Positions 19,550-36,943 of a stretch of DNA of 64,000 bases are shown in pieces. Origin of the DNA: a bacterium (GTDB lineage Bacteria > Electryoneota > JAOADG01); contig JAOADG010000008.1 in assembly GCA_026417415.1 (NCBI GenBank), forward strand, positions 449,349 to 513,348, given 5' to 3'. How positions within the stretch are numbered: position 1 is the first letter of the stretch; every line of letters begins with the position of its first letter. The position numbers and the translations under genes were made by a program. Below the pieces are notes generated by a model. It worked only from the letters and a program-made list of their open reading frames with translations. It was not told the origin of the DNA and did no database searches.

Positions 19550-20658
19550 GTAAGTATATATCTAATGCTTTTCCTACCTTTGATTTTTTCAGATTAGTCC
19601 AATATGTATCCTTTAGAACGATTGCAGCTTCATTAACTGCTTTATTCTTAGCATTACATTTAGGCCCGAAAGTGATTCTGTTTTTACATAATAGAGGATG
19701 GCGAGATGTTCCTAAAGGTTTTGTAATTGGCGACAGTGAATCGAAAAAAGGAACACCAACCATGGGTGGGTTGTTGTTTCTATTGGGAACGTTGGTTTCA
19801 GCCATCCTCTGGTGTGATTTATCAAATCGTTTCGTCCAAATTCTACTAATTGCTACTCTGTATTTTGCATGTTTAGGGTTTTGGGATGACTATGGTAAAG
19901 TTAAAATAGGAAAAGGTGAAGGGGGGCTTTCTGAAGTAAAGAAATTATTTTTACAATTCGTCTTTGGAATAGGATTAGCACTCTTTATCGGTTATACAGA
20001 TTATTCTCCTTATCCTGATGTTTTTCGTACAGAAATTTTTCTACCATTTGTAAAACCATCTATTTACAAAGGAATTGATATCAACATAGGCATTTTTTAT
20101 ATCGCTTATGTTACCATTTTTACGATTTTCATTTCTAATTCTGTGAATATCAGTGATGGTTTTGATGGTCTGGCAATTGTACCTGCAGTAATTACTACTG
20201 CTGTATTTGCAATTTTTGCCTATATCTACGGTACCATAAATTTAGCAACTGGATTATTGTTTCGATACTTCCCGGGAACAACTGAAATCACTATTTTCTT
20301 AGCTGGTTTTATTGGCGCAGGAATAGGATTTTTATGGTTTAATTGTTATCCTGCGCAAATGTTTATGGGAGATACCGGTTCGTTAACCATAGGTGGAATG
20401 TTAGCAACTACGGCAGTATTATTAAAACAGGAAATGTTGTTTTTGTTCGCTGGTGCGTTTTTTGTAGCAGAAGGGTTGTCTTCACAAATCAGCGATAAGA
20501 TTGGACAAAAATTTTTAGGGAAAAGGTTGTTTACCAGAGCACCTTTGCACTACGCACTACAACATTCAGGACTATCTGAACCAAAAGTAGTTGTTCGTGC
20601 ATGGATTCTGTCTTTCATAATAGGTCTTTTTGCACTTGCTACTGTGAAACTTCGTTGA
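19534..20658 (+). CDS. mraY: Phospho-N-acetylmuramoyl-pentapeptide transferase.
   Basis: 'GTPTMGG', 'LGFWDDYGKV', 'NSVNISDGFDGLA' and 'CYPAQMFMGDTGS' are MraY motifs. About 10 TM helices. Confidence 0.9.
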   Translation: MLYWLSKYISNAFPTFDFFRLVQYVSFRTIAASLTALFLALHLGPKVILFLHNRGWRDVPKGFVIGDSESKKGTPTMGGLLFLLGTLVSAILWCDLSNRFVQILLIATLYFACLGFWDDYGKVKIGKGEGGLSEVKKLFLQFVFGIGLALFIGYTDYSPYPDVFRTEIFLPFVKPSIYKGIDINIGIFYIAYVTIFTIFISNSVNISDGFDGLAIVPAVITTAVFAIFAYIYGTINLATGLLFRYFPGTTEITIFLAGFIGAGIGFLWFNCYPAQMFMGDTGSLTIGGMLATTAVLLKQEMLFLFAGAFFVAEGLSSQISDKIGQKFLGKRLFTRAPLHYALQHSGLSEPKVVVRAWILSFIIGLFALATVKLR

Positions 20659-21437
20659 TGGCTATTTCTATCCAAAATCTTGTAAAAGTTTATCCTAAAA
20701 AAAATGGAAATCCACCTGTTAGAGCATTAGATGGATTCTCCTGTCGTGTGAAAAAAGGCGAAATTTATGGCCTGCTAGGATTAAACGGATCAGGAAAATC
20801 AACAGTAATTAAAATTTGTACAACATTATTAAAACCTACCGGTGGTGAAATCAAAGTTTTAGGTTTATCGCCTACAACAGAAGGTAAGGAGTTACGGCCC
20901 AAGATTGGATTAGTAGCACAATCTGTATCTCTAAATGAATACGCATCTGTCCTTGAAAATTTTTTATTTTTTGGGAAAAGATATCCTAAAACAAAAGAAT
21001 TTCTTGAAAAAGAAATACGTGATTTATCTGACATCTTTGAGTTGCACCCCTTTTTAAACAGAATGGTCAAAGATTTATCCGGTGGAATGAAAAGAAAAGT
21101 AGATGTAGCGACGTCATTACTGCATCGTCCAGAGTTGTTGTTTTTAGATGAACCCACACTTGGTTTGGATGTTCCATTTCGAAGAACTATGTGGAAACAT
21201 TTATTACAACTTGTGCGAGAAAGAGAAATGACCATCATGCTAACTACGCACTATTTGGAGGAGGCGGACCAATTGTGCGATACAGTAGGGATCATCCATC
21301 ATGGCAAACTGTTGATTGAAGGTAAATCAAATGATTTGAAGAAAAGTATAATTCAAAAAACACCTAGTACTACTTTAGACGATGTATTTCTTTACTATAC
21401 AGGATTATCAATTCAAGAAGAAACTGAACAGTTATGA
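20658..21437 (+). CDS. ABC transporter ATP-binding protein (ABC-2 type).
   Basis: Start ATG 20658 overlaps the mraY stop as TGATG. Walker A 'GLNGSGKST', signature 'LSGGMKRKVDVA', Walker B 'LLFLDEPT'. Confidence 0.88.
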   Translation: MAISIQNLVKVYPKKNGNPPVRALDGFSCRVKKGEIYGLLGLNGSGKSTVIKICTTLLKPTGGEIKVLGLSPTTEGKELRPKIGLVAQSVSLNEYASVLENFLFFGKRYPKTKEFLEKEIRDLSDIFELHPFLNRMVKDLSGGMKRKVDVATSLLHRPELLFLDEPTLGLDVPFRRTMWKHLLQLVREREMTIMLTTHYLEEADQLCDTVGIIHHGKLLIEGKSNDLKKSIIQKTPSTTLDDVFLYYTGLSIQEETEQL

Positions 21438-22195
21438 ATTTATTTCGAAATCAGTTTATTGAAGATGTACTATCAATCGCTATCGATCGATTAAGGACGC
21501 AGATACGTGTTCCAGTTTGGGTTGCAATGGAATTTATAGAACCGATTATGTGGTTGATCATGTATAGTCAGTTATATACAAAAGAGATTACAACTTCGTT
21601 CCTTGGGAATAGATCTTATTTAGATTATTTCGTTCCCGGATTACTTTTAATGACTTGTTTTTTTGCTGCTTCTTGGAGTGGGATGGGATTGTTGGATCGG
21701 TTACGTTCGGGTTTCATCAATCGTGTATTAGTAACCCCTATTTCACGTTGGGCAATAATATTGGGGTATGCTTTAGCATTGACCATTACTTTATGGATTC
21801 AAATGGTAATCGTTTTATTGACAGCGTTTCTGTTGGGTTGGAGACCTGAACTAACTTTTCATTTACTATTTTTTTTATTTATAGCAGTAACCATGGTAGG
21901 TATTGCGTTTAGTGCATTATCATTTGCTTTAACCTTTGTAGGACAGCGTGAAGAAGCAATAATCCCCGTATTAAATTTTCTAATACTCCCTTTAATTTTT
22001 TTATCAGGAATTTTTATTCCACTTTCCTATTCTCCTAAATGGATACAGATTGCAGCCAAATTTAACCCTTTAGCTTGGACCCACAAGTTTGCAACTCTTC
22101 CGTTACCTCAGGCATACGGATATTTATTCCCAATTGTCCTTTTTACTTTGTTTGCTTTATGGATCAGTAGAAGAACAGTAAAACCTTATCTTTAA
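21434..22195 (+). CDS. ABC-2 family transporter permease.
   Basis: Six TM helices. ATGA overlap with the upstream ATPase gene. Confidence 0.75.
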   Translation: MNLFRNQFIEDVLSIAIDRLRTQIRVPVWVAMEFIEPIMWLIMYSQLYTKEITTSFLGNRSYLDYFVPGLLLMTCFFAASWSGMGLLDRLRSGFINRVLVTPISRWAIILGYALALTITLWIQMVIVLLTAFLLGWRPELTFHLLFFLFIAVTMVGIAFSALSFALTFVGQREEAIIPVLNFLILPLIFLSGIFIPLSYSPKWIQIAAKFNPLAWTHKFATLPLPQAYGYLFPIVLFTLFALWISRRTVKPYL

Positions 22196-22390
22196 TGATC
22201 TTTTTTCACTTCAATCTGACAAGAGTTTGGTTCCCCCGAAACCGAATCTGATAGTCACGTTTTAACTCCCAATTTAGGTAGTACCCATTTCTGCAAGCCA
22301 AACCATACTAAAAAAATTGCAACGAACAACAAAATATCTGATAGCACTGATTTTCTCCAATTGATCAACTTGTTTATCTCCTTTAGTTAC

Positions 22391-22423
22391 AAAAAACGGA
22401 CTACTGAAAAGTAGTCCGTTTGT
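22391..22423. terminator. Bidirectional rho-independent terminator between convergent genes.
   Basis: AAAAAA-CGGACTACT-GAAA-AGTAGTCCG-TTTGT. Confidence 0.7.
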
Positions 22424-22439
22424 ATATTAAAGACACTAC

Positions 22440-23621
22440 TTATTTATTAGAACGAAGTTCATTTTCTAATCTTTTGAGTTCAGCTTCTGCTCTTTCTCTT
22501 TCTTGCTGAGCACGCATTAAATCAGAATTTAGGAATAGTAGATCAACCTCACTATCTACGGTCCAATCAAATAAAGACAGTTTTGTCTGCCGAGATAATC
22601 TTTCCCGAATTGCAGCACCTGCCGTACTTCTTCTACCTTCTCCTGTTTTTGCAAAAGGATCAATTTTATAAAACGGAGTCGGTGGAATAAATTTAAACAT
22701 ACCGTTTAAACGCCAAGGTTCATAATTCTTTTCTTTCTTAGTATCGTACTTATGTTTGGTTGAATTTTTGGCGTTGGTAATTAAAAATTCTGGTGAAACA
22801 AGAAAACTCAATCCTTCCATAATTCTGAATTCACCTAATACTGATAGATAAGCATAAGGTTCTCTTGAAAAAACATTTGGTTTTGGCATTCTAGCAAAGA
22901 ACAATCCAGCCACCTGACCACCTAATGAAATAGTATTTCTCACTGGATAAGTATAAGCCATTGAATAAGTAATGGATTGAGCAGATTTTGTTATTGAACT
23001 TACAACATCATTGTGATTTTTATACGTGATGGACACTCCGAAAAACTGACTTTCTTCTGGAGTTAATGGACGTGAATACCAAGATGTTGAGAAGGTCATG
23101 GATGGTTCCATCGCTGCGGAGTAATAAGTGTGATAAGGCAAATTATTAACTTTAGATGCAGGATAGCTCATTCCACCTGTAAAAGAATGAACTAACAACA
23201 ATTGACCCCAAGTCGTATAAATGTTTCCAAACTTTAGTCGCATTTCCAGATTGAATGGTATGAGATCACTAATCCCAAGTTTACCATAAGGATCTGCCCA
23301 TAAAGGATCTTGATAAAGAATTTGAGAAAGTCCTAATTCAATATTTCGCATAAAACCAAAATGTACACCAACTACACCAGACATGTTCCGTGTTTTAACG
23401 TTGGAAAAATTTTTAGTCCACACACGTCCATGTGAAGTTACCATCATTGAACCTGCTGGTATGGTCATACCTGATTGTACCCAATTGGTTCCATATCCCC
23501 CCGCAAATTCTTCACCAGAGGAAGGAATCACCAAAGAAAACAGTAAAACAAAAGACACAAGTAAACTAATAACCAGTTGCATACTTCCTCCGAAATTAAT
23601 TAACTGTAACGAACATACCAA
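22440..23621 (-). CDS. Putative outer-membrane beta-barrel protein with a C-terminal charged coiled-coil tail.
   Basis: Signal peptide (the likely start is M14, 'MQLVISLLVSFVLLFSLVIPSSG', around nt 23582). Alternating hydrophobic beta-strand pattern. The C-terminus reads 'RAQQERERAEAELKRLENELRSNK'. Confidence 0.5.
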   Translation of the reverse strand: MVCSLQLINFGGSMQLVISLLVSFVLLFSLVIPSSGEEFAGGYGTNWVQSGMTIPAGSMMVTSHGRVWTKNFSNVKTRNMSGVVGVHFGFMRNIELGLSQILYQDPLWADPYGKLGISDLIPFNLEMRLKFGNIYTTWGQLLLVHSFTGGMSYPASKVNNLPYHTYYSAAMEPSMTFSTSWYSRPLTPEESQFFGVSITYKNHNDVVSSITKSAQSITYSMAYTYPVRNTISLGGQVAGLFFARMPKPNVFSREPYAYLSVLGEFRIMEGLSFLVSPEFLITNAKNSTKHKYDTKKEKNYEPWRLNGMFKFIPPTPFYKIDPFAKTGEGRRSTAGAAIRERLSRQTKLSLFDWTVDSEVDLLFLNSDLMRAQQERERAEAELKRLENELRSNK

Positions 23622-23659
23622 AATACTCCACAGTAGTCAAGTAAAGCAAGAATTTCCGA

Positions 23660-24157
23660 TTATTTTCTAATGAAAAAGTAATAGTAAACATTTGCCACGA
23701 TAGCCATCTGGGATAATACTGCAACAATTTGTGATGCTAACTCTCCGAGTGAACCAGCAATGATAATAGTATCTCCCGGTTCCAATTTTGGAATTAAACG
23801 CTCGTCTCCTGTAGAAAGATATTTTTTAATATTTACAATGATCACTTCCGATCCTGCAGAAGAACTACGAATAATACGTACGTTGTCTAATCTTGCTTTT
23901 GGAGCAGGTCCACCTGCTACAGAAACCAATGTGATTAAATCAGTGGTTGATGGGACTAAATATTGACCAGGTTTTAATACTAACCCCCAAATGTTCACTG
24001 CCATAAGTAATTCATTTTGCGAGCCAATGTAATATTGTGCGCCTCGCTCAGTTCCTGTGCCTAATAAGGTACCTGTTGCACCCATACTTTGACTATAAAT
24101 TGAAGTTTGTATAGACAAAGTAATAAATAATAAAAATAGGATAAGTTTCGTGTTCAA
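23660..24157 (-). CDS. Short Wza/polysaccharide-export-like periplasmic protein (Poly_export plus one SLBB domain).
   Basis: Signal peptide. 'QYYIGSQNELLMAVNIWG' then an SLBB-like segment 'VLKPGQYLVP...LVSVAGGPAPKARLDNVRIIR...EPGDTIII'. At 165 aa it lacks the Wza C-terminal outer-membrane helix. Confidence 0.55.
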   Translation of the reverse strand: MNTKLILFLLFITLSIQTSIYSQSMGATGTLLGTGTERGAQYYIGSQNELLMAVNIWGLVLKPGQYLVPSTTDLITLVSVAGGPAPKARLDNVRIIRSSSAGSEVIIVNIKKYLSTGDERLIPKLEPGDTIIIAGSLGELASQIVAVLSQMAIVANVYYYFFIRK

Positions 24158-24167
24158 GAATCACCCC

Positions 24168-25013
24168 TTAATTGTTGTTACCAATTGTAAAATCCTTTTC
24201 TGAAAAAGAACTTGCTTGAAATGCAATCCAATATTCTAAACGCACGCGGTAGTTGCCAGCACGTAATCTACCTTGGATTAAAAATGTCGTATCTGCCGAT
24301 AAATCTTCATTAAAGCGTACATTTTGATCACTGTCATATCGTACTTGATACCACATCCAAACAATTTCATTAGATTGCGAAAATACTTTAACTACAAAAC
24401 GATCAGGTGCATTTTCTGAAGTAGAATATGGATTTTGCCATTGAAAATAAGGTATTCCAGAGGTTGTGTCGGAAACAGTTAAACCACTGGCTTTTTCTAA
24501 TAGTGCAAAAGTAATTGTATCCGATGCAGCACTACGATTTCCTGCTTCATCTATTGCATGCATCCAAATTTTAAAAGGACGAACATTTCCGCTAACTGGA
24601 TCTGGTAGCAACCGTCCATCTTGAATGATGTAAAACAATTGATTTCGGTTAAAAGGATGACGACCAATAAATACTACCTGTTCAACTGTGTCAAATGGGA
24701 TCATATAGATTTCCCATTCTCGGACATCCGTGTCAATGGGTGGTCTCCAGCGAAGTAGAAAAGAATTTGCACTACTCCCTAAATCAATCGGTCTTGACAG
24801 TGTATCTACGATTGTAGTGGGATGAACGACAGGAATAATTTGTGGTGGTGAAGGCGGAATAGCATCTATAGGTGTCGAATCTTCTCCACAACCGATGATA
24901 TAAAGAAAACTGAATGCGAGTAGAAACAAACTGATAAAACGTAAATTAGATACCAACACTAACTCCAATCCAATGATTAGTTCCAAGTTCAGGCTTTTGA
25001 TAAGTATAGTCAA
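24168..25013 (-). CDS. Lipoprotein of unknown function.
   Basis: Lipobox 'YIIGC' after a hydrophobic segment. The true start is probably downstream of the track start: the track ORF overlaps the upstream gene by 68 nt. Confidence 0.5.
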   Translation of the reverse strand: MTILIKSLNLELIIGLELVLVSNLRFISLFLLAFSFLYIIGCGEDSTPIDAIPPSPPQIIPVVHPTTIVDTLSRPIDLGSSANSFLLRWRPPIDTDVREWEIYMIPFDTVEQVVFIGRHPFNRNQLFYIIQDGRLLPDPVSGNVRPFKIWMHAIDEAGNRSAASDTITFALLEKASGLTVSDTTSGIPYFQWQNPYSTSENAPDRFVVKVFSQSNEIVWMWYQVRYDSDQNVRFNEDLSADTTFLIQGRLRAGNYRVRLEYWIAFQASSFSEKDFTIGNNN

Positions 25014-25929
25014 GTTGCATTTTCCAATACTTTACTCCAACCCCGTAAACAAATTCATTTTTACGTAAACCCATTCGAAAAGATACCGTTCTTAAATAAG
25101 TTAATTCTGCACCCCAATTTACATAATACTCATATTTCTTTTCGGTATTTAACTCTACGATAAGATCACTATTGAGTGGACGTATAGGTTGTTCATAACC
25201 TAATCCATACCTCAACTTTAATGGAATTGCATCTTCTACACCACTCCCCCAATTGATACCAGTTTTCGTAAAGTCATTTGCAACTACTGATAGGTTAATC
25301 TCTCCGAGATGTTTTTGTGCAAACAAATCATTTAGGGATAATCGTAAACCCACAGCTCCATCAACACCTATACCATTAGCATTTTTATCAAATAACGCCA
25401 TTCGTATTAATTTTACATTCAGTCCAATAGGTACTTCAATAGGCAGTGAAAAATAACTCCATCCAAACTCAGCAGTAAAACGGTTCAATTTAGCAAAAGT
25501 AAAAAAGAGAGCATCTTCACGGTCTGTAGTTACACCAATAGGTAGACCATTACGATCACGTATAACGCGTTGACGTTCATCAATTGAAAGTTTAGTGTAA
25601 TCTGGCCAAATGGGTATATCATCTATTCCAACGCGTAACCAATGGATTCCAACTGCTGCACCAGTAATTGGCATGGCTGCACCGGCTACGTGATAGCTTC
25701 CTAAACCTTCAAACAAAGGTACGTACATTGCATGAATTTCAATATTTTTTATTCTAGATAGTAAGGAAGGATTCCAGTAAAATGATCCTGCTTGGTTGCC
25801 TGTAGCAACAGCACCACCCATAGCCAGCTGTCGTGGTCCAACACCCAATTCTAAAAATTCACCTGCATAGCGAGCTGCAAATGAAAAACAATGAAGGCAA
25901 AGAATAAGAAATACAATATATTTACTCAA
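24946..25929 (-). CDS. FadL/PorV/PorQ-type outer-membrane beta-barrel protein, candidate T9SS shuttle or anchor.
   Basis: Signal peptide. The N-terminal motif 'AARYAGEFLELGVGPRQLAMGGAVATGNQAGSFYWNPSLLS' is typical of this barrel family. It ends in a C-terminal aromatic residue. It sits 7 nt downstream of the C25-family gene. Confidence 0.6.
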   Translation of the reverse strand: MSKYIVFLILCLHCFSFAARYAGEFLELGVGPRQLAMGGAVATGNQAGSFYWNPSLLSRIKNIEIHAMYVPLFEGLGSYHVAGAAMPITGAAVGIHWLRVGIDDIPIWPDYTKLSIDERQRVIRDRNGLPIGVTTDREDALFFTFAKLNRFTAEFGWSYFSLPIEVPIGLNVKLIRMALFDKNANGIGVDGAVGLRLSLNDLFAQKHLGEINLSVVANDFTKTGINWGSGVEDAIPLKLRYGLGYEQPIRPLNSDLIVELNTEKKYEYYVNWGAELTYLRTVSFRMGLRKNEFVYGVGVKYWKMQLDYTYQKPELGTNHWIGVSVGI

Positions 25930-25935
25930 TGATGT

Positions 25936-28900
25936 TTACCTCAATTTGGCTAATTTCCCTTTTTTCTCGATGACTTGATTGTTGCTTTTTGCGGTTAATC
26001 GGTAAAAATAAACCCCGTTAGCTACCACTTCACCATTTTCGTCTCGGCCATCCCAGGTGATTTCTCGATAATTAATCACTTGTGGATCAGTTTCACGCAA
26101 TGTTCTTATTTTTTTACCAGATACCGTATAGATTTTGATTTCAACGGGTTCTGTAGTTTGATCGGTTAAACTGTAGAAAAATGTAGTAGTTTTTTGAAAA
26201 GGATTTGGAAAGTTTCCAAACCATTCTAATCGAAACTGATTAGCGACTAAAAAGTTTATGGAATCAGTTGCAGTATTACTTGCTAAATCTGTAACAATCA
26301 ATTTAGCCCAATGACGACCTGTTGAAAATCTTTTAGTGACGACAATGGAAGAGTTCTGAGAAACTTGATTGGATATCGGTAGTAGTAGTTCGTTTGAAGG
26401 AAGAGTATCACCATCAACTACAACATACACACTACCTTGCTGACTAAGATCCAATCCACCATTATCATATACACTTGCAGACAAACGTGCACCACTACGA
26501 ATATAGCCACCATCTGAGAAAATTTGTCCTTCTACAGTAAAATCAAATTTTGGTGCTGTTCTATCTTGATTATCCATTAAAGAAAACTGCTGATAAGGTG
26601 GTCCGTCATACAAGTGTATTCCTTGATTGTCCACAGTAGAATTTAGCATTTTCCAAAGATTGGTAAAATGTCGGGAATGAATTTTCGTACGATTGCCAAG
26701 AATAGTATCTGCTTGCATGTGTATAATTACGCGATTTAAATAGGCAGTAGTATCAATTTGTAAAAATACAATCCCACCCCCATTGAAGACGTTGCTTGGA
26801 TTTCTACCGAATATTGCAAATTTATTTAAAGTTTGTAATCGTGAATGCAAAGTATCACTGTAAGTTACAGACAATACTGTACTTGGTTTCTGTATTGAAT
26901 TCGGAGGAATAGAAACGCTTACTCGTGATGTTGGGTTATAACTAAACCCTCGATCTCCTTCAGTCGCAGTAATCCACCAATAGACGTTATTTGATGTTGC
27001 CAAATTGTAATTATCATTTTCACTCACTTCATTGACCACATTTTCATAATCAGCATAGTAAGAGAATTTGTATTGTCCCGGTGGATATTGAAATGGATAA
27101 TAAACACTTTGTGCTGTATAGGGTGGAATAGAGGGTACAGATAGGAACTCTACTGTAATGGTATCAGATATTTGTTTAATGATTGCTACTCGTAAAAGGG
27201 TAGGTGGAACTTGCAAGGGACTATTGTTGGTGACTGTGAATCGAACGAATAGCGAATCAGTTGCTCGCCAGTGTACTTGGTTAGGAACAACTAGATTAGG
27301 TCTTCCCGGATAAGCATAAAAATCATAATCTTGATTAGGTTGTCTTACATTCCCAAGTGAATCGATCCACCTCCAATTTGTTCTTAAACGCATAGAAGGT
27401 AAAAGAGCAGGTTGAAGGGAACTTTCATACCAGAATGGACCACGAATAAAGGAACGACTGAGTTGGATGGTATCAATAGATAAAATAGAATCGTCTAAGA
27501 AAAATTTTCTAATGATTCCTTGTAAAGTCCGTATCCCATCAGAATCTATAAGTTTTACATAAAACTTAAATGTCGTATCAGAAAGGAGGGGATTGGGATC
27601 AGTTGTTACACTATCAATAAAACCACTGCTTGCGGCGGATTGAATATAAAACGATGTAGCACCACGCACTGCGGTTTGATGGTTACTTTGATAAAACCCA
27701 CGTAAAGTTAAACCATTGGTAGAAATTCCACTAGGAACACGAATTCTAGTAGAAAATGAATTGGAAACAATCGGGCGAATCGAAACAATCGGTTCCCAAA
27801 CAGGATTATCAATAGAAAAATGATTTTGATTATACCATATAAAACTAACATTTCCACTATTGAAAGGAAGTGACGCTTGAATATCTATTGAGTCGCCTAC
27901 TTGAACAAACAATTGTGAACTATTTTGTTGAATATTTTCAAAAGCTTTGAAACGAAATGCAGGATCACCTAACAATGATGTAGCATAAAACGTATTACCA
28001 ACTGGGCCAAACATCGCACGATTGCCGTATCTACTGAGATAAATGGATTTAGTAAGAGTCATCAATTCACCATAAGAGATGTTCGGATATCTTCGGATTT
28101 GTTCAAACATAAATTGTTGAAACAAAATCATTTGTTCACGATAGCCTAAACCTGCTGTACCAAACACTCCGACTGCGCCTTTATTAGGATGAAGAACAAA
28201 GTCCTCACCCATAGAGCTGCGTTGTACATCACCATTAAACGCTACAATAAAGCAAGAGAAATTACAGATTAAAGGATACTTTCCTGCATTTCTCATATTT
28301 GCTATATCACGTGTGCGAAAGAGACCACCGTCAGACCAAATTTCACCTGCACCATGGCCATTGTATATCACCAAAGCTGAACCTTTCTCGAACAAATTTT
28401 GGAGTAAAGAGGTACCACCATAATAGGGAAGAGAAGGATTCTCTACTTGCATTTCCCAAAAGTCATAATATGGCGATAAACGATCACGATTAATACGGTT
28501 GTATATTGTATAAAGGTTTTGACCACCAGAACCTGTAACAAAAGTAATGTAATTTTGCCAACGATCAGGTGTTGGGTTGTTTTCTAATTCAAGAACTTTG
28601 TTAAAATAAAAACCGGCTTCCTCTTGAGTTCTTGCCGGAACACGACTAATATGAATATCTGGTAAATCATTTTCATCGTCTAAAATTGAATACCAAGTAT
28701 CAGAACCTACTACACCAATTTGTGAAACTGGAACCATAGGATGTGGAATAAGTGCACCATTTTTTCTTGGACTCCGATGCTGACGTTGAAGCCCGTCACC
28801 AAGTAGTAAGATGTACCGTGGAGGAATTTGCCAATTTCTTACAGCATAACGTAGAAATTCTAGAACTCCTTTGGGATGAAACATACCTTGTGTGAATCTT

Positions 28901-30984
28901 CTCAAGATTGCTTCAATATTAACTTTAAGAACACCATTCATTTGTTGTGAACGAAGCGCAAGAAGTTGTTCCAGTTGAGGAGTAGCAAGTAAATCGGTAG
29001 TTCCAATGACAAGGTATTCGGCACCACCATTGGGAGGGGACAAAATGGTATCTGGTGGTATTAACGCCATTTGGTCAGATAAAAAACTCTTCTTGCGACT
29101 ACTTGTAACTGCATAATATTCAGTAGGTTGAGATGGGTTATCTTGAAAATGAATTTTATATCGGATTTGGTTATCGCGCGATAGATAACGTTCGACCGTA
29201 CCATTGATTACTTTTGCTGAACCCCATCGGTAAACATGGATATCAGGAGATGTAAAATTTTCTAAAACAAAATCAAAATACCGATGAATGATGTTTTGAG
29301 TTAAGGGAGTCCCGATTCGTATTTCATCATTATCGGCAATAGGGAAGCGAAGATATTCAATTTGAAACCAATTCAGTGCGATACGATTGGTTGGTGTAGC
29401 ACCTGGCGCATCTCCAGGGCAAAAAACAGACAGTACATTGATACCATGATGAAAATTTCGGTTAAACATTTGTGAGGATGCAGTGGATTCTCCAATTCGT
29501 GCGGTTTGTCCAATCCAATCAAATGCTCCTTGTGGGGTGCGACCAATGTCAAGTGAATAATCTGTTGCATTGTTTAAAATGACAAAGGCATGATGTCGTG
29601 TAAGACCGCCAGTTAGTCCATGTAATGCTACTTTCACTCTAACTGGGGTAAACGATGAAGTATCGGGATAAGGTAAATAAAAATTATAGTCGCGTATTTC
29701 AAAATTATAAATACCAGCATCCCAAAAATAACGATCGGCAATGGGTCTCTCAACTTCTGCTAAACCACCAAAAAAAGGACTTTGTTCATAATGAATTCTC
29801 AAAGGACCAGAAGACACAATCACTAAATTTGTATCCAAAGGATTAGTAATCCGTATTTCACCACTTACCTGAGGAATACGTTGACCATTTCGAGTATTCC
29901 ATGTTAACAAATATGCCTTTTCTATTGTATAACTATTTCCGGATAAATCCGGTGCTTGGATTGTATCTTCTGGTAGTGGCGGTCTTCCAAAGAATTCAAA
30001 TGCATCCCAAGGATCGAAACGTCCATCTTCATCACCTTCAAAAAGAATGGGAATATATTCACCTTCTGAACGTAAAATTAGAGTTGAAGGTTGTATGTTT
30101 GAAATGGGAACACCTAAATTGATCAAATCTTGACCAGTAACACGGTAAACACCAAATTCTTTTACATCGAAACGAACCGCGTAGCCATTATCATCAATGG
30201 TGTGAATTGCAGGGGTTGAAGATAATCCCGTGACAAGATGATGGGGAATCGTAGCGGACAAGGGGCCTACCAGTTGTTCCAACTCGATTCGTTCGGATGG
30301 AGATGCCATTCGACCACTGAGTGCGACGGATTGTGATTTACTATAAATTTCTACTACGAGTTCTTTGATTTGCTGTATCTTGTTCTCTTGGACATTGTAC
30401 CGAATGGGGTGAACTACTATACTAGCAATGGGTATTCCTCGGTACTTTCCGATCAGATGGGTTTGAATAAATGGTGTAGGGATAAATCCAGTTGATGAAA
30501 TTGGATTCGTTTCAATAATACTATCACCAAAAACACTAGGGATATAAGTTAACCTTGGAACTTCAAGTTGTTCTGTTTCAATGGAAACTACGCGGTAATA
30601 AATATCATCGTGGTACCAAACAAACCTTTGGAGGTCAATCGGCAAAAGGTATCCTTCTTCAATTCGTTCATTTTCTAATCCATTTATTCGTAGAAACGGA
30701 GAACCAGAAAAAGTGTCAATTTGCACAGATGGATAATGAAATTGCAAACGTAGAGAACGTTCACTTTGCTGTAAAATACGAACATTTGCTTTTTCTGAAA
30801 TTGGTTTAGAAGTAGATGGTATTTGTGTAAGTTGTTGATTAACTGAAGAGGTTAAAATAATTTTTTGAGCAAAGTCAATTGTCTCAACCCTTTTGTTATT
30901 TGTGTTTGCAAGAGCAATAAGTCCTACAGAAATGGTGATGAAAACGAACCAAACAATTAAACCCTTCTTACGGGAAGAAAACAC
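25936..30984 (-). CDS. 1682-aa secreted peptidase-C25-family (gingipain/PorU-like) protein with a T9SS C-terminal sorting domain.
   Basis: N-terminal signal anchor. C25-like block 'YLVIGTTDLL...YILLLGDG...IVIYNGHGAGEIWSDGG...YPLICNFSCFIVAFNGD' carries both the His and the Cys. C-terminal 'FGNFPNPFQKTTTFFYSLT...NGVYFYRLTAKS'. Confidence 0.75.
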   Translation of the reverse strand: MFSSRKKGLIVWFVFITISVGLIALANTNNKRVETIDFAQKIILTSSVNQQLTQIPSTSKPISEKANVRILQQSERSLRLQFHYPSVQIDTFSGSPFLRINGLENERIEEGYLLPIDLQRFVWYHDDIYYRVVSIETEQLEVPRLTYIPSVFGDSIIETNPISSTGFIPTPFIQTHLIGKYRGIPIASIVVHPIRYNVQENKIQQIKELVVEIYSKSQSVALSGRMASPSERIELEQLVGPLSATIPHHLVTGLSSTPAIHTIDDNGYAVRFDVKEFGVYRVTGQDLINLGVPISNIQPSTLILRSEGEYIPILFEGDEDGRFDPWDAFEFFGRPPLPEDTIQAPDLSGNSYTIEKAYLLTWNTRNGQRIPQVSGEIRITNPLDTNLVIVSSGPLRIHYEQSPFFGGLAEVERPIADRYFWDAGIYNFEIRDYNFYLPYPDTSSFTPVRVKVALHGLTGGLTRHHAFVILNNATDYSLDIGRTPQGAFDWIGQTARIGESTASSQMFNRNFHHGINVLSVFCPGDAPGATPTNRIALNWFQIEYLRFPIADNDEIRIGTPLTQNIIHRYFDFVLENFTSPDIHVYRWGSAKVINGTVERYLSRDNQIRYKIHFQDNPSQPTEYYAVTSSRKKSFLSDQMALIPPDTILSPPNGGAEYLVIGTTDLLATPQLEQLLALRSQQMNGVLKVNIEAILRRFTQGMFHPKGVLEFLRYAVRNWQIPPRYILLLGDGLQRQHRSPRKNGALIPHPMVPVSQIGVVGSDTWYSILDDENDLPDIHISRVPARTQEEAGFYFNKVLELENNPTPDRWQNYITFVTGSGGQNLYTIYNRINRDRLSPYYDFWEMQVENPSLPYYGGTSLLQNLFEKGSALVIYNGHGAGEIWSDGGLFRTRDIANMRNAGKYPLICNFSCFIVAFNGDVQRSSMGEDFVLHPNKGAVGVFGTAGLGYREQMILFQQFMFEQIRRYPNISYGELMTLTKSIYLSRYGNRAMFGPVGNTFYATSLLGDPAFRFKAFENIQQNSSQLFVQVGDSIDIQASLPFNSGNVSFIWYNQNHFSIDNPVWEPIVSIRPIVSNSFSTRIRVPSGISTNGLTLRGFYQSNHQTAVRGATSFYIQSAASSGFIDSVTTDPNPLLSDTTFKFYVKLIDSDGIRTLQGIIRKFFLDDSILSIDTIQLSRSFIRGPFWYESSLQPALLPSMRLRTNWRWIDSLGNVRQPNQDYDFYAYPGRPNLVVPNQVHWRATDSLFVRFTVTNNSPLQVPPTLLRVAIIKQISDTITVEFLSVPSIPPYTAQSVYYPFQYPPGQYKFSYYADYENVVNEVSENDNYNLATSNNVYWWITATEGDRGFSYNPTSRVSVSIPPNSIQKPSTVLSVTYSDTLHSRLQTLNKFAIFGRNPSNVFNGGGIVFLQIDTTAYLNRVIIHMQADTILGNRTKIHSRHFTNLWKMLNSTVDNQGIHLYDGPPYQQFSLMDNQDRTAPKFDFTVEGQIFSDGGYIRSGARLSASVYDNGGLDLSQQGSVYVVVDGDTLPSNELLLPISNQVSQNSSIVVTKRFSTGRHWAKLIVTDLASNTATDSINFLVANQFRLEWFGNFPNPFQKTTTFFYSLTDQTTEPVEIKIYTVSGKKIRTLRETDPQVINYREITWDGRDENGEVVANGVYFYRLTAKSNNQVIEKKGKLAKLR

Positions 30985-31068
30985 GTACTGCCTCCCAAAC
31001 GTTATTTATAAAACACAATTCCCTTTGATAATGGAAATTGGAATAGAAAAAATTGATAAGTAAATTCC

Positions 31069-32127
31069 GTGCAAAATACTTGTAAGATTACAATTTGTCA
31101 AGTTAACAGAATTTCTTTGCTACTTCAACATTCTATTGTGATGGATAACACATTCTTTACTCTTAGAAAGTTTCTTTCTTTCGCTTTTGCAATTTTCGCA
31201 AGTATCCTTGCATTATGGCTAACATTCTATGGAGTAGATTGGAATGAGTTAATTTACAACATTGCGAAAATTCAGATTCCTACACTTATCTATCTCAGTT
31301 TACTGAATGGATTTTTTATAGTACTACGTGCTTTTCGATGGCAAATCCTTCTACGAAGGATTAAGAATATTCCACTCTTTACAGTTTTACAAATTTCACA
31401 AGTTGGTGCATTTCTAAATAATGTTTTACCTCTAAGAATAGGGGAAGTAATTCGTGCAATTGTGCTAAAAAAAAGGTATCAATTGTCCGGAGCTGAAGTA
31501 ATTGGAAACATCATCTTAGAAAGGATGCTTGATTTAATTGCCATCGTATTTTTAATCTACTTCGTTCTGATTACCAATACTATTCCGATTAAGTTCAATG
31601 CAACCATTCAGTATGCAATGAAAATTGTAGGATTCGGTATAGGCGGAATTTTAGTAATTGCGATGTTTATGAAAGTGAAATTGAAAAAAAATACAGAATT
31701 AGCCGTTGGTTGGAAAGGGCTTTTATTTAGGGTATCCAATGGTATTAATGGTTTGTATGATTGGAAAACTTCGTTACCTGCTTTTGGGTTTTCTTTAGCC
31801 ATGTGGATAACCAGTGCAACCACGATACTACTTTTTTCACCACTTAGTCACGGAAGTATTAATCTGTTAAATGCATTGGTTGTTACCATTTTAATCGCTA
31901 TAGGAGTTACTATACCTGCTGCTCCTGGTTTTGTAGGTACCTACCATTTGTTTTGCAAGATTGGATTGGTTGCATTCGGTGTAGATCCAGAATATGCTGT
32001 TGCAATTGCTGTAGTGACACATTTTATGAGTTTCTTTTGGAACAATGTGATTGGATTTATTTCAATGTTTTTATTAAAAATCAGTTGGCAGGATATCAAC
32101 ATTTTTCGAAAAGAGAGTGATCTATAA
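31069..32127 (+). CDS. UPF0104 / flippase-like (MprF-TM-like) integral membrane protein.
   Basis: Eight TM helices. 'LPLRIGEVIRAIVLKKRY' is the family motif. The likely start is ATG 31141 ('MDNTFF'). Confidence 0.55.
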   Translation: MQNTCKITICQVNRISLLLQHSIVMDNTFFTLRKFLSFAFAIFASILALWLTFYGVDWNELIYNIAKIQIPTLIYLSLLNGFFIVLRAFRWQILLRRIKNIPLFTVLQISQVGAFLNNVLPLRIGEVIRAIVLKKRYQLSGAEVIGNIILERMLDLIAIVFLIYFVLITNTIPIKFNATIQYAMKIVGFGIGGILVIAMFMKVKLKKNTELAVGWKGLLFRVSNGINGLYDWKTSLPAFGFSLAMWITSATTILLFSPLSHGSINLLNALVVTILIAIGVTIPAAPGFVGTYHLFCKIGLVAFGVDPEYAVAIAVVTHFMSFFWNNVIGFISMFLLKISWQDINIFRKESDL

Positions 32128-32139: not shown

Positions 32140-33747
32140 TTAATTTTGTATTAAAGAATCTAATCGCATAATCACTGATCTGAGAATATGTCGTGTCCAA
32201 GTTGGGTTGTGTATTCCTAATGAGCCATCCTTGCTGAAAAACCAATACATCCATCTACCTTGTCTAAATTCAAAACTTAAAGTGTCCCCTTCATTTTTTA
32301 AGAATTCAAGTTGGTGATTTAGGATAGATAAAGAATCTTGAAACGGTTGTTGTCGCTCAACAATAAACTCTGTTGTGGCTTGTGGATGGCAAGATTTACA
32401 AGTTAGATAATTTGGTCGAAATTGGTGGTTGGTGAATGCTATAGATCCATAACTCCAAGGTGTTGAATATAAATGACAAACTGAACATTGATTAGACCAT
32501 TCAGAATGTTCGGTATTGCTGGGTAAATTGAAAAACTCATGACCAAAAATTGCTTGTATATTGTTGGATAAAAGATCATTTTGTGGATGATAGGGAATTT
32601 GATAAGCAGTGGGTGTTCCATCAATATTGGATTGATGACATTGATTACAAAGCACATCTGGAGAATGACGTAAATCTTTCCATTGGTGAAGAGAATGATT
32701 ATGAGGAGTATGACAAGTAGCACATCCTATACCATCAAAACGTGTGGAATCAGTTGGATACTCAAGATTCAAATTGTATTTAAGTTTTTTAATACTCTCC
32801 GTATAAATATGACATCCCACACATTGATTTCTTTCTACGATAGGTAATGTATGGAGAATGTGTGAAACCGAAGCAGAACGCGCGTGCCCACTTCCTAACC
32901 ATTCAGTATAAATTGATAAATGACTCTGTGAATGACAATTTCCACAAGATTGAATTGCTAATTTTGAATCAATAAAACCTTGATGAACTTGGTGGGTAAT
33001 AAAAGATACTCCATAAAATTCGGATGGTCCATGGCAACTTTCGCATTGAACATGGTCAAAACGTTCAATAGGTCGCTCATCATAACCACCATTTGAATAG
33101 TTTAATTCGTAACCTGTTGTATGACACGAATTGCAATGGGTCAGCCAATTCGAATTGAAAATTCGTCTATTCCCTGTAGTCGCATGTGCCGTTTGTTGCC
33201 ACGATTGTACAAATATACTATGACAACGATTGCAGGAAGCATCTGTACCTAAATAAGCGGGATGATGATCGATCGTGTATTGAGCAATTCGTACTATTTT
33301 TATTATGGAATCCGTTTGATTTCTGGTAGTAGCACGACAAACAATTTTCCAATAGGAATCTATACAATCAGGTACAATCGTTTGTATTGTGTCTATTGAA
33401 ATTTGTATTCGCCTATTCAGATTATAAAAAATGCTATCTGTAGGTCGTTTTATGAAAAATTCGTATTCATAATACACTGTATCGGATACAATTGATTGTA
33501 CGATTGTAGTAACGGTGATAGGTGTTCCTGCAGCAACTGTGGGTGAAGAAAACCGAATATCAATAAGTTTAAATGAATGTATCGTATTTTTATCATCATG
33601 ATTTATACAACCAATAAAATTGAGTAACATCAAGAATATGAACACAAAGAAAAATAAAAAACAAACAAAATGTATTATGAGGGAATTATGAAATCTGAAA
33701 CGACTTTGTTCCGATTGAACGATGAACTTCAAGTGATAACGCGCCAT
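32140..33747 (-). CDS. Nine-haem c-type cytochrome, probably a lipoprotein.
   Basis: Nine CxxCH motifs: CNRCH, CNSCH, CESCH, CGNCH, CVGCH, CATCH, CNQCH, CSVCH, CKSCH. N-terminal hydrophobic segment ending in '...LLNFIGC'. Confidence 0.8.
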   Translation of the reverse strand: MARYHLKFIVQSEQSRFRFHNSLIIHFVCFLFFFVFIFLMLLNFIGCINHDDKNTIHSFKLIDIRFSSPTVAAGTPITVTTIVQSIVSDTVYYEYEFFIKRPTDSIFYNLNRRIQISIDTIQTIVPDCIDSYWKIVCRATTRNQTDSIIKIVRIAQYTIDHHPAYLGTDASCNRCHSIFVQSWQQTAHATTGNRRIFNSNWLTHCNSCHTTGYELNYSNGGYDERPIERFDHVQCESCHGPSEFYGVSFITHQVHQGFIDSKLAIQSCGNCHSQSHLSIYTEWLGSGHARSASVSHILHTLPIVERNQCVGCHIYTESIKKLKYNLNLEYPTDSTRFDGIGCATCHTPHNHSLHQWKDLRHSPDVLCNQCHQSNIDGTPTAYQIPYHPQNDLLSNNIQAIFGHEFFNLPSNTEHSEWSNQCSVCHLYSTPWSYGSIAFTNHQFRPNYLTCKSCHPQATTEFIVERQQPFQDSLSILNHQLEFLKNEGDTLSFEFRQGRWMYWFFSKDGSLGIHNPTWTRHILRSVIMRLDSLIQN

Positions 33748-35323: not shown

Positions 35324-35446
35324 AATGATGAGATGAATAGAGACAACAGTGGACTATTTCATAATAAAGAAAATTTTATTTTTTTACAATCGTTTTACTG
35401 TTCCTTTATGCTTTTGTATTTTACTTCATCCATTAATGGAGGAAAA

Positions 35447-36943
35447 ATGAAAAAGGTTTTCATTGTTTTAGTTCTTAATGTTTTCACAGCGTCAGCTGTT
35501 TTCGCTTTAGTGGTTCAAAGTACTATTCCACAAAATGGTACTGCTAATGTTCCGTTGACCACTGTACTTTCAGCAACTTTTTCTACTCCAATTGACCCAA
35601 ATGCGATGTTTCCAAATGGGTACCCTATAAATATAGAGATATTTCATCCAGATTCGATCACGATAATATCCTCTTCGCTGTCTTCAAACAATCAATCAGC
35701 CTACATGAATGTACAACTTAGACCGAACAATGATTATGTCGCTATCATTTTAGGTGCAGTTACTCCGACTGGTGATTCATTGGATATTCCGTATGTATTG
35801 AATTTTTCTACTGCTCCTTCCATGGGGAATCTTCAAGTTTCAGGTACGGTTACAATCAATAATTCTGGTGCATACCGTGCAATTGTGGGTTTATCAAGAA
35901 ATCGTCCTTTTACAGAAGAAGACATGTACATTGCACAAGCTACAGTGGTTCAAAATCAACAAGGGAATTATTCCTTGCCTTATACTAGGCCTGGGATTTA
36001 CTTTCCAGTCGCTGTCATTGATTTAGATGGTGATGGAGTCATCGATCTTGAATCAGGAAATGATTACTTTGGGTTTTATGATAGCAACAATGATGAGATT
36101 CCTGATAGCATTCAAGTGTCTAATACCAATATATCCAATATCAACTTTACTCTTCGTTCAATTTACATGCCGATAACCGCAAGACAAAGATTACAGGTTG
36201 CGAATGCTATAGCACAAACAATGATGCCCAATCCTCAATTGTATTTCTTATATGGATTTGAGGTAGATTCGATAGGTAGAGCAGATGCTTGGGCTTATTA
36301 TTATCAATCTAATTCGGTTAATTACATCGCTGGAGTGTATGTAGCTTATCTCTTTACCAGTGCAGATACCACCTCCGAAAATCCTTTACCGCCGAATATG
36401 TTATCATTACCACAAAATTGGATTGATAGTGACCAAGCCATGTTGATAGCTGAACAGAATGGAGGTGCTTCCTATCGCGTTCAGTATCCAAATACGGAAA
36501 TGTACATGTATGGTGGAAACTTTTATTGGTTGGATTCTGCTTGGCAAAACCGTTTCATTTGGTTAGTTGAATATTATGTACCCGAGATTGATTTATCACT
36601 TGAGATTTACATTGATATGCTAAACGGGCAATTGTTAAGAGTCACAAATACCAATGAGCCACTTCGTACCTCTTTACCCCAAAGCATTGAATTGTCACAA
36701 AATTATCCCAATCCATTCAATCCAGAAACAAACATTTCCTTTACATTACCGAAAGATCATTTCGTAACTTTACAAGTGTACAACATTCAAGGAGAATTGG
36801 TTACAACATTATTGAACCGTAGATTGAATGTAGGAACCCACACAGTCAAATGGAACGCAAGTGGATATCCAAGTGGTACTTATTTCTATCGTTTACAGGT
36901 GGGTAAGCAAGTGATGATGAGAAAAATGACTCTAATGAAATAA
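35447..36943 (+). CDS. Secreted protein (Ig-like and CarbPepD_reg-like domains plus a Ca-binding-like 'DLDGDGVID' motif) with a T9SS C-terminal sorting domain.
   Basis: Start ATG 35447 with RBS GGAGGAAAAATG and signal peptide 'MKKVFIVLVLNVFTASAVFA'. C-terminal 'LSQNYPNPFNPETNISFTL...SGTYFYRLQVG'. Confidence 0.7.
   Translation: MKKVFIVLVLNVFTASAVFALVVQSTIPQNGTANVPLTTVLSATFSTPIDPNAMFPNGYPINIEIFHPDSITIISSSLSSNNQSAYMNVQLRPNNDYVAIILGAVTPTGDSLDIPYVLNFSTAPSMGNLQVSGTVTINNSGAYRAIVGLSRNRPFTEEDMYIAQATVVQNQQGNYSLPYTRPGIYFPVAVIDLDGDGVIDLESGNDYFGFYDSNNDEIPDSIQVSNTNISNINFTLRSIYMPITARQRLQVANAIAQTMMPNPQLYFLYGFEVDSIGRADAWAYYYQSNSVNYIAGVYVAYLFTSADTTSENPLPPNMLSLPQNWIDSDQAMLIAEQNGGASYRVQYPNTEMYMYGGNFYWLDSAWQNRFIWLVEYYVPEIDLSLEIYIDMLNGQLLRVTNTNEPLRTSLPQSIELSQNYPNPFNPETNISFTLPKDHFVTLQVYNIQGELVTTLLNRRLNVGTHTVKWNASGYPSGTYFYRLQVGKQVMMRKMTLMK

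Follow-up and report, generated by a model that had tools for sequence, protein, structure and literature searches.

A conserved operon pairing a PorU-like C25 peptidase and a PorV/PorQ-family barrel with an SLBB-plus-helix protein: a candidate variant of the T9SS attachment module outside Bacteroidota

The closest described counterpart of the locus studied here belongs to the T9SS (type IX secretion system) of Bacteroidota such as Porphyromonas gingivalis and Flavobacterium johnsoniae, in which PorU, a C25 peptidase with a C-terminal sorting domain (CTD), is paired with the barrel PorV in company with PorQ and PorZ; the mechanism of PorU/V/Q/Z used for comparison is that given in PMC12365241. 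Beneath the attachment complexes of this system lies the PorK-PorN-PorG sub-complex, which comprises a lipoprotein, a ring-forming protein of the periplasm and a barrel in the outer membrane (PMC12365241). NCBIfam also holds models for PorU2 and PorV2, labelled as a 'putative type IX sorting system', and a literature search found no publication describing these families. Gingipains, like PorU, combine a C25 domain with a T9SS CTD, and lack the PorU-type stretch ahead of the catalytic domain. The OPX proteins, among them Wza and the Myxococcus WzaB and WzaX classes, are defined by a Poly_export domain together with a lipid anchor. Our search of the literature found no account of the five-gene module described below.

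The module lies in a 64-kb window (the whole stretch of DNA analyzed) from an uncultured relative of Calditrichota, a host outside Bacteroidota. Inspection of the open reading frames located five co-directional genes on the minus strand (g1 to g5, Table 1), as given in the preliminary description of this DNA; in the NCBI annotation they are consecutive hypothetical proteins (seen for N2450_02970, N2450_02975 and N2450_02985). The tight packing reported for these genes was maintained in that they are close or overlapping, and the spacings were corrected, through new starts for g3 and g5, to 6 nt, an 11-nt overlap, 10 nt and 77 nt, in order. The g3 reading frame is open to position 25013, its likely start being a TTG at 24956 with the Shine-Dalgarno (SD) sequence GGAG, and g5 starts at an ATG at 23582 behind GGAGG, NCBI likewise giving 380 aa for its product. 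Translation of g1 starts at a GTG with GGGAGG upstream. The operon genes carry SD sites; a PorU/PorV-like module in an organism with such sites had been regarded as notable, and SD use is ordinary outside Bacteroidota. A strong hairpin closes the operon, with a perfect 10-bp stem, a UUUC loop, a U6 tail and a free energy of -19.7 kcal/mol (z = -4.5; 0 of 200 shuffled sequences folded equally well); it had been called bidirectional, a description that is supported in part, the T-tail being weaker on the plus strand. A promoter-like TTGACA-17-TATTTT is present at 31101-31073, but sigma-70-like matches occur in the region at chance frequency (33 found vs 33 expected).

Table 1. Features of the operon and its surroundings in the window.
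Feature	Position	Strand	Description
g1	25936..30984	-	1682-aa PorU-like C25 peptidase, putative T9SS sortase
g2	24946..25929	-	327-aa PorV/PorQ-family outer-membrane beta-barrel; begins 6 nt past g1
g3	24168..24956	-	~262-aa lipoprotein, FN3/Ig-like beta-sandwich domain(s)
g4	23660..24157	-	165-aa secreted protein: signal peptide, one OPX-type SLBB domain, C-terminal helix
g5	22440..23582	-	380-aa outer-membrane protein, modelled 12-stranded beta-barrel plus a conserved C-terminal segment in the periplasm with a coiled coil at its end
Intrinsic terminator hairpin	22398..22425	-	just past g5, ends the operon
Divergent intergenic region	30985..31068	.	84 nt; contains g1 leader and SD (GGGAGG)
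Flippase-like membrane protein	31069..32127	+	LPG_synthase_TM family; divergent from operon; PF03706 E 1.3e-43
T9SS cargo gene	10597-12909		CTD-bearing
T9SS cargo gene	16625-17134		CTD-bearing
T9SS cargo gene	35333-36943		CTD-bearing
T9SS cargo gene	41736-45464		CTD-bearing
T9SS cargo gene	45652-48543		CTD-bearing
T9SS cargo gene	50122-55821		CTD-bearing

In the protein encoded by g1, a signal peptide is combined with an N-terminal region of PorU type and the catalytic domain (residues ~266-1014), an insertion of ~450 aa containing CARDB, and a C-terminal T9SS type-A CTD; the Pfam matches were Peptidase_C25 (PF01364, E 1.5e-56), CARDB and FlgD_ig. Comparison with the PorU model NF033707 (T9SS_sortase) gave 244 bits (E 2.5e-72), under the curated cut-off of 420 bits, over profile positions 4-734 of 1095. 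This match begins at profile position 4, equivalent to residue 266 of g1, and takes in the part that precedes the catalytic domain. The sole PDB match was PorU (6za2), aligned in the catalytic and C-terminal parts: the His motif YNGHGAG of g1 aligns with YAGHGGP, the Cys motif ICNFSCF with ITATCDF, and the C-terminal 200 aa with PorU 933-1139. The stretches quoted in the preliminary description (NGHGAGE, ICNFSCF and ARYAGEFLELGVGPRQLAMGGA) are all present, and a GHGG..W(S/A)D ... TC(F/Y) motif is kept in all nine orthologues aligned. On sequence grounds, these data support the identification of g1 as PorU-like rather than gingipain-like. The terminal T9SS sorting domain ascribed to it was also found (TIGR04183, 32.1 bits, above the cut-off of 23). 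This CTD is of a subtype distinct from those of the six cargo proteins of the window, and conservation of g1 between phyla is highest in its C-terminal ~210 aa (38-45% identity vs about 25-30% elsewhere in the protein), a combination that fits a retained docking domain.

With regard to g2, the PorV_fam model NF033709 was matched almost end to end (residues 23-323 against profile positions 4-322 of 326), with 68.1 bits and E 9.4e-19, under the cut-off of 90 bits. The best score was obtained with the PorV2 model NF052325 (PorVQ2; 70 bits, E 1.7e-19, cut-off 325), of which only the N-terminal half of the profile was covered. At the equivalog level, scores were under the cut-offs for both PorV (NF033710, 11.9 bits, cut-off 250) and PorQ (NF033711, 27.8 bits, cut-off 220). 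The best PDB match of the family profile was PorV (6h3i_F, E 6e-12), Toluene_X was reached at E 0.056 only, and two orthologues with 34-36% identity (P0055 and P0060) carry the NCBI name PorV/PorQ family. The proposed placement of the barrel with PorV/PorQ rather than with generic FadL proteins is thus supported by profile comparison, PorV and PorQ being indistinguishable for g2. Altogether, the locus repeats the Bacteroidota arrangement of an adjacent C25-CTD peptidase and PorV/PorQ barrel with many CTD cargo genes nearby, and g1 shares with PorU the type of N-terminal region, the aligned catalytic His and Cys and the aligned C-terminal region; it differs in that g1 is ~500 aa longer and in that both proteins fall under the curated cut-offs (244 of 420 and 68 of 90 bits), so that they are best regarded as divergent family members whose orthology to PorU and PorV proper is not certified.

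The three downstream genes had been described as matching no recognised T9SS component, and we likewise found no counterpart of the FN3 lipoprotein, the SLBB-plus-helix protein or the 12-stranded barrel among the described ones. From the TTG start, g3 has a signal sequence and lipobox, MVSNLRFISLFLLAFSFLYIIG followed by Cys (lipobox IIG/C), whose Cys is invariant in 10 aligned orthologues; fn3 was matched in 5 of the 10 family members. In g4, the Pfam search matched SLBB alone (26.4 bits, just under the cut-off of 27), with no Poly_export (PES, PF02563) match at E <= 0.1. In Foldseek, the AF2 model of g4 (pLDDT 73, helix 137-163) matched Myxococcus xanthus WzaB (9n9a, E 4e-7) best, then Wza (2j58, E 9e-6), with ComEA and GfcC next, and its SLBB domain superposes on those of WzaB and Wza (E 4e-7 to 1e-5). 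A helix ends g4, as it does Wza and GfcC. Unlike OPX proteins, it has neither Poly_export domain nor lipid anchor, and only one SLBB domain in its 165 aa; no Wzc, Wzx or Wzy neighbours it, and it is always linked to a sortase pair and not to capsule genes. The protein had been thought to lack a terminal helix; on the contrary, a conserved 26-residue C-terminal hydrophobic/amphipathic helix of membrane type is present, with a polar stripe (Q143, invariant Q150 and N156) and an invariant YY. In class 1 OPX proteins the C-terminal amphipathic helix spans the outer membrane; the basic C-terminus of g4 is equally compatible with an inner-membrane stop-transfer anchor. The 48 homologues of g4 are all 131-211 aa long with at least 45% identity, and g4 is the most conserved of the five proteins (44-73% identity across loci in which g2 shows 32-41%).

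The structure predicted for g5 is a 12-stranded barrel of low confidence (pLDDT 58). We tentatively consider g5, on the basis of this model, as a COG4313/FapF-type barrel (PDB 4rl8, 5o65) whose tail is a periplasmic coiled coil; in those channels the coiled coil is N-terminal, not C-terminal as in g5, no amyloid (fap) genes occur near g5, and g5 has no significant match to PF13557 (Phenol_MetA_deg), which is matched weakly by 5 of 38 family members (best E 0.0011). The set formed by a lipoprotein, a putative ring-former and an outer-membrane barrel is analogous in make-up to PorK-PorN-PorG, an analogy alone, as no sequence or fold relationship with these proteins was found for g3-g5.

Twenty independent loci, from Calditrichota (among them MAGs labelled Caldithrix), LCP-89, Zixibacteria and unclassified MAGs, share the collinear order g1-g2-g3-g4; a search with g4 as the sole query turned up three of them (LCP-89, Zixibacteria and one other). 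Since the proteins of these loci are only 25-70% identical, such an arrangement is far beyond chance. In the collinear loci surveyed, g1 always adjoins a PorV/PorQ-family gene and the g3 homologue always lies between those of g2 and g4; contig cuts apart, no surveyed locus had g3 or g4 without g1-g2. The fifth gene is present in 11 of the 20 loci and absent from 7 complete ones, in three of which other envelope proteins take its place. A grouping of g1 with gingipains, a grouping of g2 with generic FadL transporters or an absence of the gene order from relatives had been named in the preliminary description as what would speak against its proposal; none of the three was observed.

We favour, with moderate confidence, the interpretation that g1-g5 are a lineage-specific version of the attachment module of the T9SS, in which g3-g5 form an accessory sub-complex with the sortase pair. 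That g1 might instead be a large secreted gingipain-like protease, a T9SS cargo beside unrelated outer-membrane proteins g2-g5, is suggested by its C25 domain and CTD and by adhesin-like extra domains such as CARDB, but this is very improbable: its PDB match is PorU and not gingipains, the sortase model also matches the PorU-specific part ahead of the catalytic domain, and a PorV/PorQ-family gene always lies beside it. Moreover, the second C25 protein of the window (41736-45464) does match gingipain R, and not NF033707, and its catalytic domain begins at residue ~245, as opposed to ~657 in g1.

A paralogous, specialised sorting system of the PorU2/PorV2 type, serving a subset of the cargo or a particular surface structure while the canonical PorU/PorV/PorQ/PorZ complex is encoded elsewhere in the genome, is unlikely but deserves some weight. 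The separate NCBIfam models of this second, divergent pair are both matched, PorU2 (NF052324) with 168 bits and PorV2 with the best score of g2, and the extra length and domains of g1 and a CTD unlike those of the local cargo would agree with it; however, the PorU model gives g1 a better score than the PorU2 model does (244 vs 168 bits), both far under their cut-offs (450 bits for PorU2), and the best 120 relatives of g2 in a word-filtered search included no second family member on the source contig or on its close relatives' large contigs. We consider it improbable that a porU-porV pair lies by chance beside an unrelated small unit for polysaccharide or polymer export, with g4 as a minimal OPX/GfcC-like part and g5 as the outer-membrane channel. 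The analogues invoked for such a unit are gfcB-C-D and class-2 OPX plus Wzp porins, and its attraction lies in the nearness of the g4 fold to WzaB, Wza and also GfcC, in the sugar-nucleotide and glycosyltransferase genes nearby, and in a gene order, lipoprotein then beta-grasp protein then barrel, that mirrors gfcB-gfcC-gfcD.

In the attachment-module interpretation, g1 would be a C25 cysteine peptidase of the PorU type that is a T9SS substrate itself and is probably retained at the surface with its own CTD docked to the g2 barrel, in the fashion of PorU. The pair would take T9SS cargo, remove the cargo CTD and couple the cargo by transpeptidation to a glycolipid or glycan at the surface. The products of g3, g4 and g5 may make up an accessory sub-complex of the periplasm and outer membrane whose genes are locked to those of the sortase pair, and in which g4 most likely oligomerises to a ring, like the SLBB domains of Wza-type exporters. 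With g3 and g5, this ring could either bring the glycan acceptor to the sortase, as PorZ/PorQ do in Porphyromonas, or anchor the complex at the surface to the periplasmic machinery, as PorK/N/G do. The recurrence of the module in several little-studied phyla suggests that secreted proteins are attached to the surface there with helpers other than those of Bacteroidota.

All six further T9SS cargo genes previously counted in the window were located (Table 1), no T9SS core genes (porK/L/M/N, sprA) occur within the 64 kb, and neither PorZ nor PorQ was seen near the operon. The flanks of the operon encode a MurG-like GT28, an MraY/WecA-like transferase, an ABC-2 exporter, a flippase-like protein, a GlmU-like nucleotidyltransferase, and PMT_2 and GT1 transferases; in 5 loci, a glucose-1-phosphate thymidylyltransferase-like gene lies within the operon. 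This neighbourhood hints at a glycan link of the module. The flippase-like protein, also above the TIGR00374 cut-off, may be associated with the operon: its gene does not adjoin the module in the more distant loci examined, and in the close relative L081 it occupies the same divergent position, with 46% identity.

The operon comprises five minus-strand reading frames of 1682, 327, 281, 165 and 393 codons (g1 to g5); their NCBI annotation is "hypothetical protein", as read in the records N2450_02970, _02975 and _02985. By sequence inspection, g1 begins with a GTG codon preceded by GGGAGG, and g5 begins at ATG 23582, preceded by GGAGG and in agreement with NCBI. The g3 start is most probably TTG 24956, with GGAG ahead, giving a predicted lipoprotein signal that ends IIG|C. 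After this refinement the spacings from g1 to g5 were 6 nt, an 11-nt overlap, 10 nt and 77 nt. A hairpin with a perfect 10-bp stem followed by U6 lies directly 3′ of g5 (−19.7 kcal/mol, z = −4.5). Promoter-like matches occurred at chance level; an Rfam scan of positions 21500-32000 retrieved no family in or around the operon. Just past the terminator, a 37-aa ORF encodes one hydrophobic helix and has the SD sequence AAGGAG 9 nt upstream; no conservation of this ORF was found in the fetched loci of relatives.

Positions of the five-gene module, of other features of the window, and of related features in homologous loci of other genomes (L numbers)
Feature	Sequence	Position	Strand	Remarks
Five-gene operon	window	22440-30984	-	g1 to g5
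g1, PorU-like C25 peptidase	window	25936-30984	-	1682 aa
g1 C-terminal sorting domain	window	25936-26190	-	
g2, PorV/PorQ-family barrel	window	24946-25929	-	327 aa
g3, FN3-type lipoprotein	window	24168-24956	-	
g4, SLBB protein	window	23660-24157	-	165 aa
g5, barrel protein	window	22440-23582	-	380 aa
ORF past the terminator	window	22255-22368	-	37 aa
Second C25 protein	window	41736-45464	-	1242 aa
Short ORF with sorting domain	window	16625-17134	-	169 aa
Convergent set directly downstream of operon	window	17456-22195	+	MurG-like GT28-HEAT (697 aa), MraY/WecA-like GT4, ABC ATPase, ABC-2 permease
Flippase-like LPG_synthase_TM protein	window	31069-32127	+	divergent from g1
Same position in close relative	L081	3277-4284		46% identity
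Multihaem cytochrome c	window	32140-33747	-	535 aa
Alternative envelope set	L001	12519-16660		three conserved genes
Alternative envelope set	L082	10688-14953		three conserved genes
Alternative envelope set	L083	10730-15385		three conserved genes
Tandem g5-type barrels with coiled-coil tail	L006	12328-14794		Calditrichia and Caldithrix-labelled MAGs (L006, L085, L086)
Tandem g5-type barrels with coiled-coil tail	L085	12316-14628		
Tandem g5-type barrels with coiled-coil tail	L086	12143-14455		
Thymidylyltransferase-like gene	L011	12306-13058		
TPR protein after operon	L011	14349-18002		

Pfam searches with g1 gave Peptidase_C25 (E 1.5e-56, residues 657-1011) and CARDB, together with weak matches to C-terminal sorting domains. 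The nearest NCBIfam model was the T9SS sortase PorU (244 bits, E 2.5e-72); its profile positions 4-734 were matched by g1 residues 266-1014, so that the match extends to the part of g1 ahead of the catalytic domain. With PorU2 the score was 168 bits, and g1 stays well under both curated cut-offs (420 bits for PorU, 450 bits for PorU2). The score for the type-A sorting domain TIGR04183 was above cut-off. Among all PDB sequences, the only match of g1 was PorU of P. gingivalis (6za2), with the His and Cys motifs aligned and a second aligned stretch formed by the 200 C-terminal residues. The motif GHGG..W(S/A)D...TC(F/Y) is kept in nine g1 orthologues. The second C25 protein of the window has its catalytic domain between residues 245 and 590, carries a T9SS C-terminal sorting domain (CTD) and served as an internal control: its PDB matches were gingipain R structures (1cvr, 4ief), it did not match the PorU sortase model, and it is probably a gingipain-like secreted protease. 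This contrast in PDB and NCBIfam matches led us to reject the assignment of g1 to gingipain-like cargo, and the PorU-like identity proposed in the preliminary description is upheld.

Domain searches also bore out the six further CTD genes that had been recognized in the window. The six cargo CTDs have YPNPFN in common and a K as the last residue; the g1 CTD is of a distinct subtype that ends in ...VANGVYFYRL...KLAKLR and contains an insertion. This form is conserved across all g1 orthologues and may mark a retained docking CTD. One ORF of 169 aa, unusually short as T9SS cargo, is almost entirely signal region and T9SS CTD (Por_Secre_tail, 34.5 bits).

The adjacent g2 was matched over its full length by PorV_fam (E 9.4e-19, 68 bits for a cut-off of 90), with further matches to PorVQ2 (E 1.7e-19) and PorQ (E 1.2e-6). 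The FadL family (Toluene_X) reached only E 0.056, and a generic FadL identity was rejected in favor of the PorV/PorQ type suggested earlier. A profile of 35 relatives had PorV of F. johnsoniae as its best solved relative (6h3i_F, E 6e-12), and NCBI names more distant g2 orthologues as PorV/PorQ family. By these matches g2 is classed as a PorV/PorQ-family barrel, at the level of the family rather than as PorV versus PorQ.

The conservation of the arrangement was analyzed in 86 loci, 80 from a g2-anchored scan of a genome collection and six from individual protein look-ups, whose ORFs were searched with HMMs of g2-g5 and by phmmer with g1. All five genes were present in 11 loci and g1-g2-g3-g4 only in seven; two more had g3 and/or g4 and were cut by the contig end. 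The g1-g2 pair stood alone in 17 loci (including Poribacteria, Coatesbacteria and Gemmatimonadota), and the remaining 49, mostly from Ignavibacteria and Bacteroidota, had the g2-family gene only. Every one of the 20 loci with g3 and/or g4 presented a one-strand collinear g1-g2-g3-g4 block (contig-cut in two), so the arrangement first noticed in this genome is kept in relatives. Three of these loci were found via g4 alone (candidate division LCP-89, Zixibacteria and one other), and all three had C25, PorV-like and lipoprotein genes upstream. In genetic terms, neither g3 nor g4 is separable from the g1-g2 pair.

The fifth position is more variable. Duplicated g5 genes were found in three of the 11 g5-bearing loci, two of them MAG contigs with a g2 homologue that NCBI labels Caldithrix abyssi. 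Three of the seven loci without g5 have another envelope set after the module, which may be a substitute fifth component; it encodes a FlgT_N-domain protein (LipL46-like match in L001), a protein of 553-593 aa with a weak outer-membrane beta-barrel match in one locus, and a protein of 423-428 aa, which matches DUF6175 in L082 and L083 and for which L001 gave no family match. Five loci (L007, L011, L012, L013 and L058) carry a glucose-1-phosphate thymidylyltransferase-like gene between the g4 and g5 homologues, with an rmlA model score of 254 bits (cut-off 360). In L011, L012, L013 and L058 the gene after the operon encodes a protein of about 1200 aa that is built from many YbgF/CpoB-type TPR units; its match to PorW/SprE stays below threshold (144 bits, cut-off 250).

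Searched alone, g3 had no family match; in the alignment of ten positional orthologues the lipobox Cys is invariant and signatures of FN3 type are visible, and five of the ten match fn3. The g4 protein is unusually conserved, with 44-73% identity across loci where g2 shows 32-41% and g1 about 25-30%, and its 48 homologues are all of 131-211 aa with at least 45% identity. In g4 a signal peptide and a linker lead to a single SLBB domain, after which comes a conserved helix at the C-terminus, placed at residues 137-163 in the AF2 model (pLDDT 73). The helix, evident in both model and alignment, contradicts the earlier statement that g4 lacks one; along it runs a heptad-spaced polar stripe (Q143, the invariant Q150, and N156), its YY pair is invariant and its end is basic. 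Its predicted location is either the outer membrane, as in Wza, or the inner membrane, as a stop-transfer anchor. The SLBB domain superposed best on those of the outer-membrane polysaccharide export (OPX) proteins WzaB and Wza, followed by ComEA and GfcC. Membership of g4 in the OPX proteins was rejected because the protein has neither a Poly_export domain nor a lipid anchor (lipobox).

The g5 family, for which there is no Pfam model, is small: 68 representatives in 1.84 billion proteins, almost all of 375-405 aa, with a weak Phenol_MetA_deg match in five of 38 members. The low-confidence AF2 model (pLDDT 58) contains 12 strands and then two helices, the last a coiled-coil-like helix of 35 residues. 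The tail after the barrel is the best-conserved part and, since the strand number is even, would be periplasmic in this model. A search of PDB sequences with the g5 profile gave nothing but spurious coiled-coil matches. The identification of g3-g4-g5 as GfcB/C/D homologues was also rejected, as it had no Pfam support and the GfcC fold match was weak (E 2e-3).

In Bacteroidota, surface PorU is bound to the barrel PorV and surface PorZ to the barrel PorQ; PorU takes off the cargo CTD and puts in its place A-LPS supplied by PorZ, and the attachment complexes are located above the PorK/N rings and PorG (PMC12365241). In sequence, in domain order and in catalytic residues the g1-g2 pair resembles PorU-PorV, as it does in the adjacency of the two genes, and its assignment to this part of the scheme is well supported and, in our estimation, quite probable. 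The partners g3, g4 and g5 have no counterpart among described T9SS components. From domain types, conservation and neighborhood only, we prefer to read them as an accessory sub-complex of periplasm and outer membrane, which would serve either to present the acceptor glycan or to tether the surface complex; in it, g4 would form a ring, and the part in the outer membrane would be g5 or the proteins that take its place.

Other explanations have to be weighed against this accessory sub-complex. If g1 were mere cargo, its PorU matches would have to be reconciled with the gingipain R matches of the control C25 protein, and this difference argues against it. A polysaccharide-export unit that neighbors the sortase pair by chance is likewise disfavored by the strict linkage of g3 and g4 to the pair and by the absence of OPX hallmarks. 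The module might also be a specialised paralogous sorting system, with the canonical one elsewhere in the genome; no T9SS core genes were found within the 64-kb window.

A more comprehensive proposal, which we consider unlikely as a whole, goes beyond the accessory sub-complex: Calditrichota, Zixibacteria, LCP-89 and related uncultured FCB lineages would attach T9SS cargo by means of a new four-protein core with interchangeable channels, in which polymer export is coupled to sorting. The core would comprise the PorU-like sortase, the PorV/Q-like barrel, the FN3 lipoprotein and, as a minimal ring of Wza type, the SLBB protein with its helix spanning the membrane; the channel would be either a FapF/COG4313-like barrel with a coiled coil or the FlgT_N protein with a barrel protein and DUF6175. 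Ring and channel would export or present a glycan acceptor straight to the sortase, a coupling that would replace PorZ/PorQ (or PorK/N/G).

Knowledge of the T9SS mechanism comes almost wholly from Bacteroidota, and to our knowledge cargo attachment is unexplored in other FCB phyla, which are likewise rich in CTD proteins. A T9SS sortase with a PorV-type barrel is already known as a kind of system. In the literature searched we found nothing relevant on PorU2/PorV2, no work linking PorU with an SLBB protein and, among the papers listed, none joining T9SS with Calditrichota, Zixibacteria, KSB1 or Marinimicrobia, and the T9SS and PorU terms searched do not occur in the Caldithrix genome paper. 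The conserved FN3 lipoprotein, the SLBB-plus-helix protein and the interchangeable outer-membrane proteins outside Bacteroidota thus appear undescribed in that literature. Tied to a sortase/barrel pair, these three envelope proteins, among them g4, are concrete candidates for the acceptor delivery or tethering step, a clear and testable lead for T9SS specialists that would also provide better annotation for five hypothetical proteins. Cultured isolates of Caldithrix abyssi exist, and if these strains carry the module found in MAGs labelled with that name, it would be accessible to experiment.

Around the operon lie envelope-glycan genes. Their products are a MurG-like GT28 with fused HEAT repeats, a MraY/WecA-like transferase, an ABC-2 exporter, a flippase-like protein, a GlmU-like nucleotidyltransferase, and PMT_2 and GT1 transferases. 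The convergent set directly downstream looks like a unit that synthesizes and exports lipid-linked glycans. All five genes, together with the divergent flippase-like gene, are retained in the close relative L081 (4.34-Mb contig); in more distant loci this flippase-like gene was not found beside the module. A multihaem cytochrome c is also encoded in the window, and its MtrC/MtrF-like domains hint at extracellular electron transfer.
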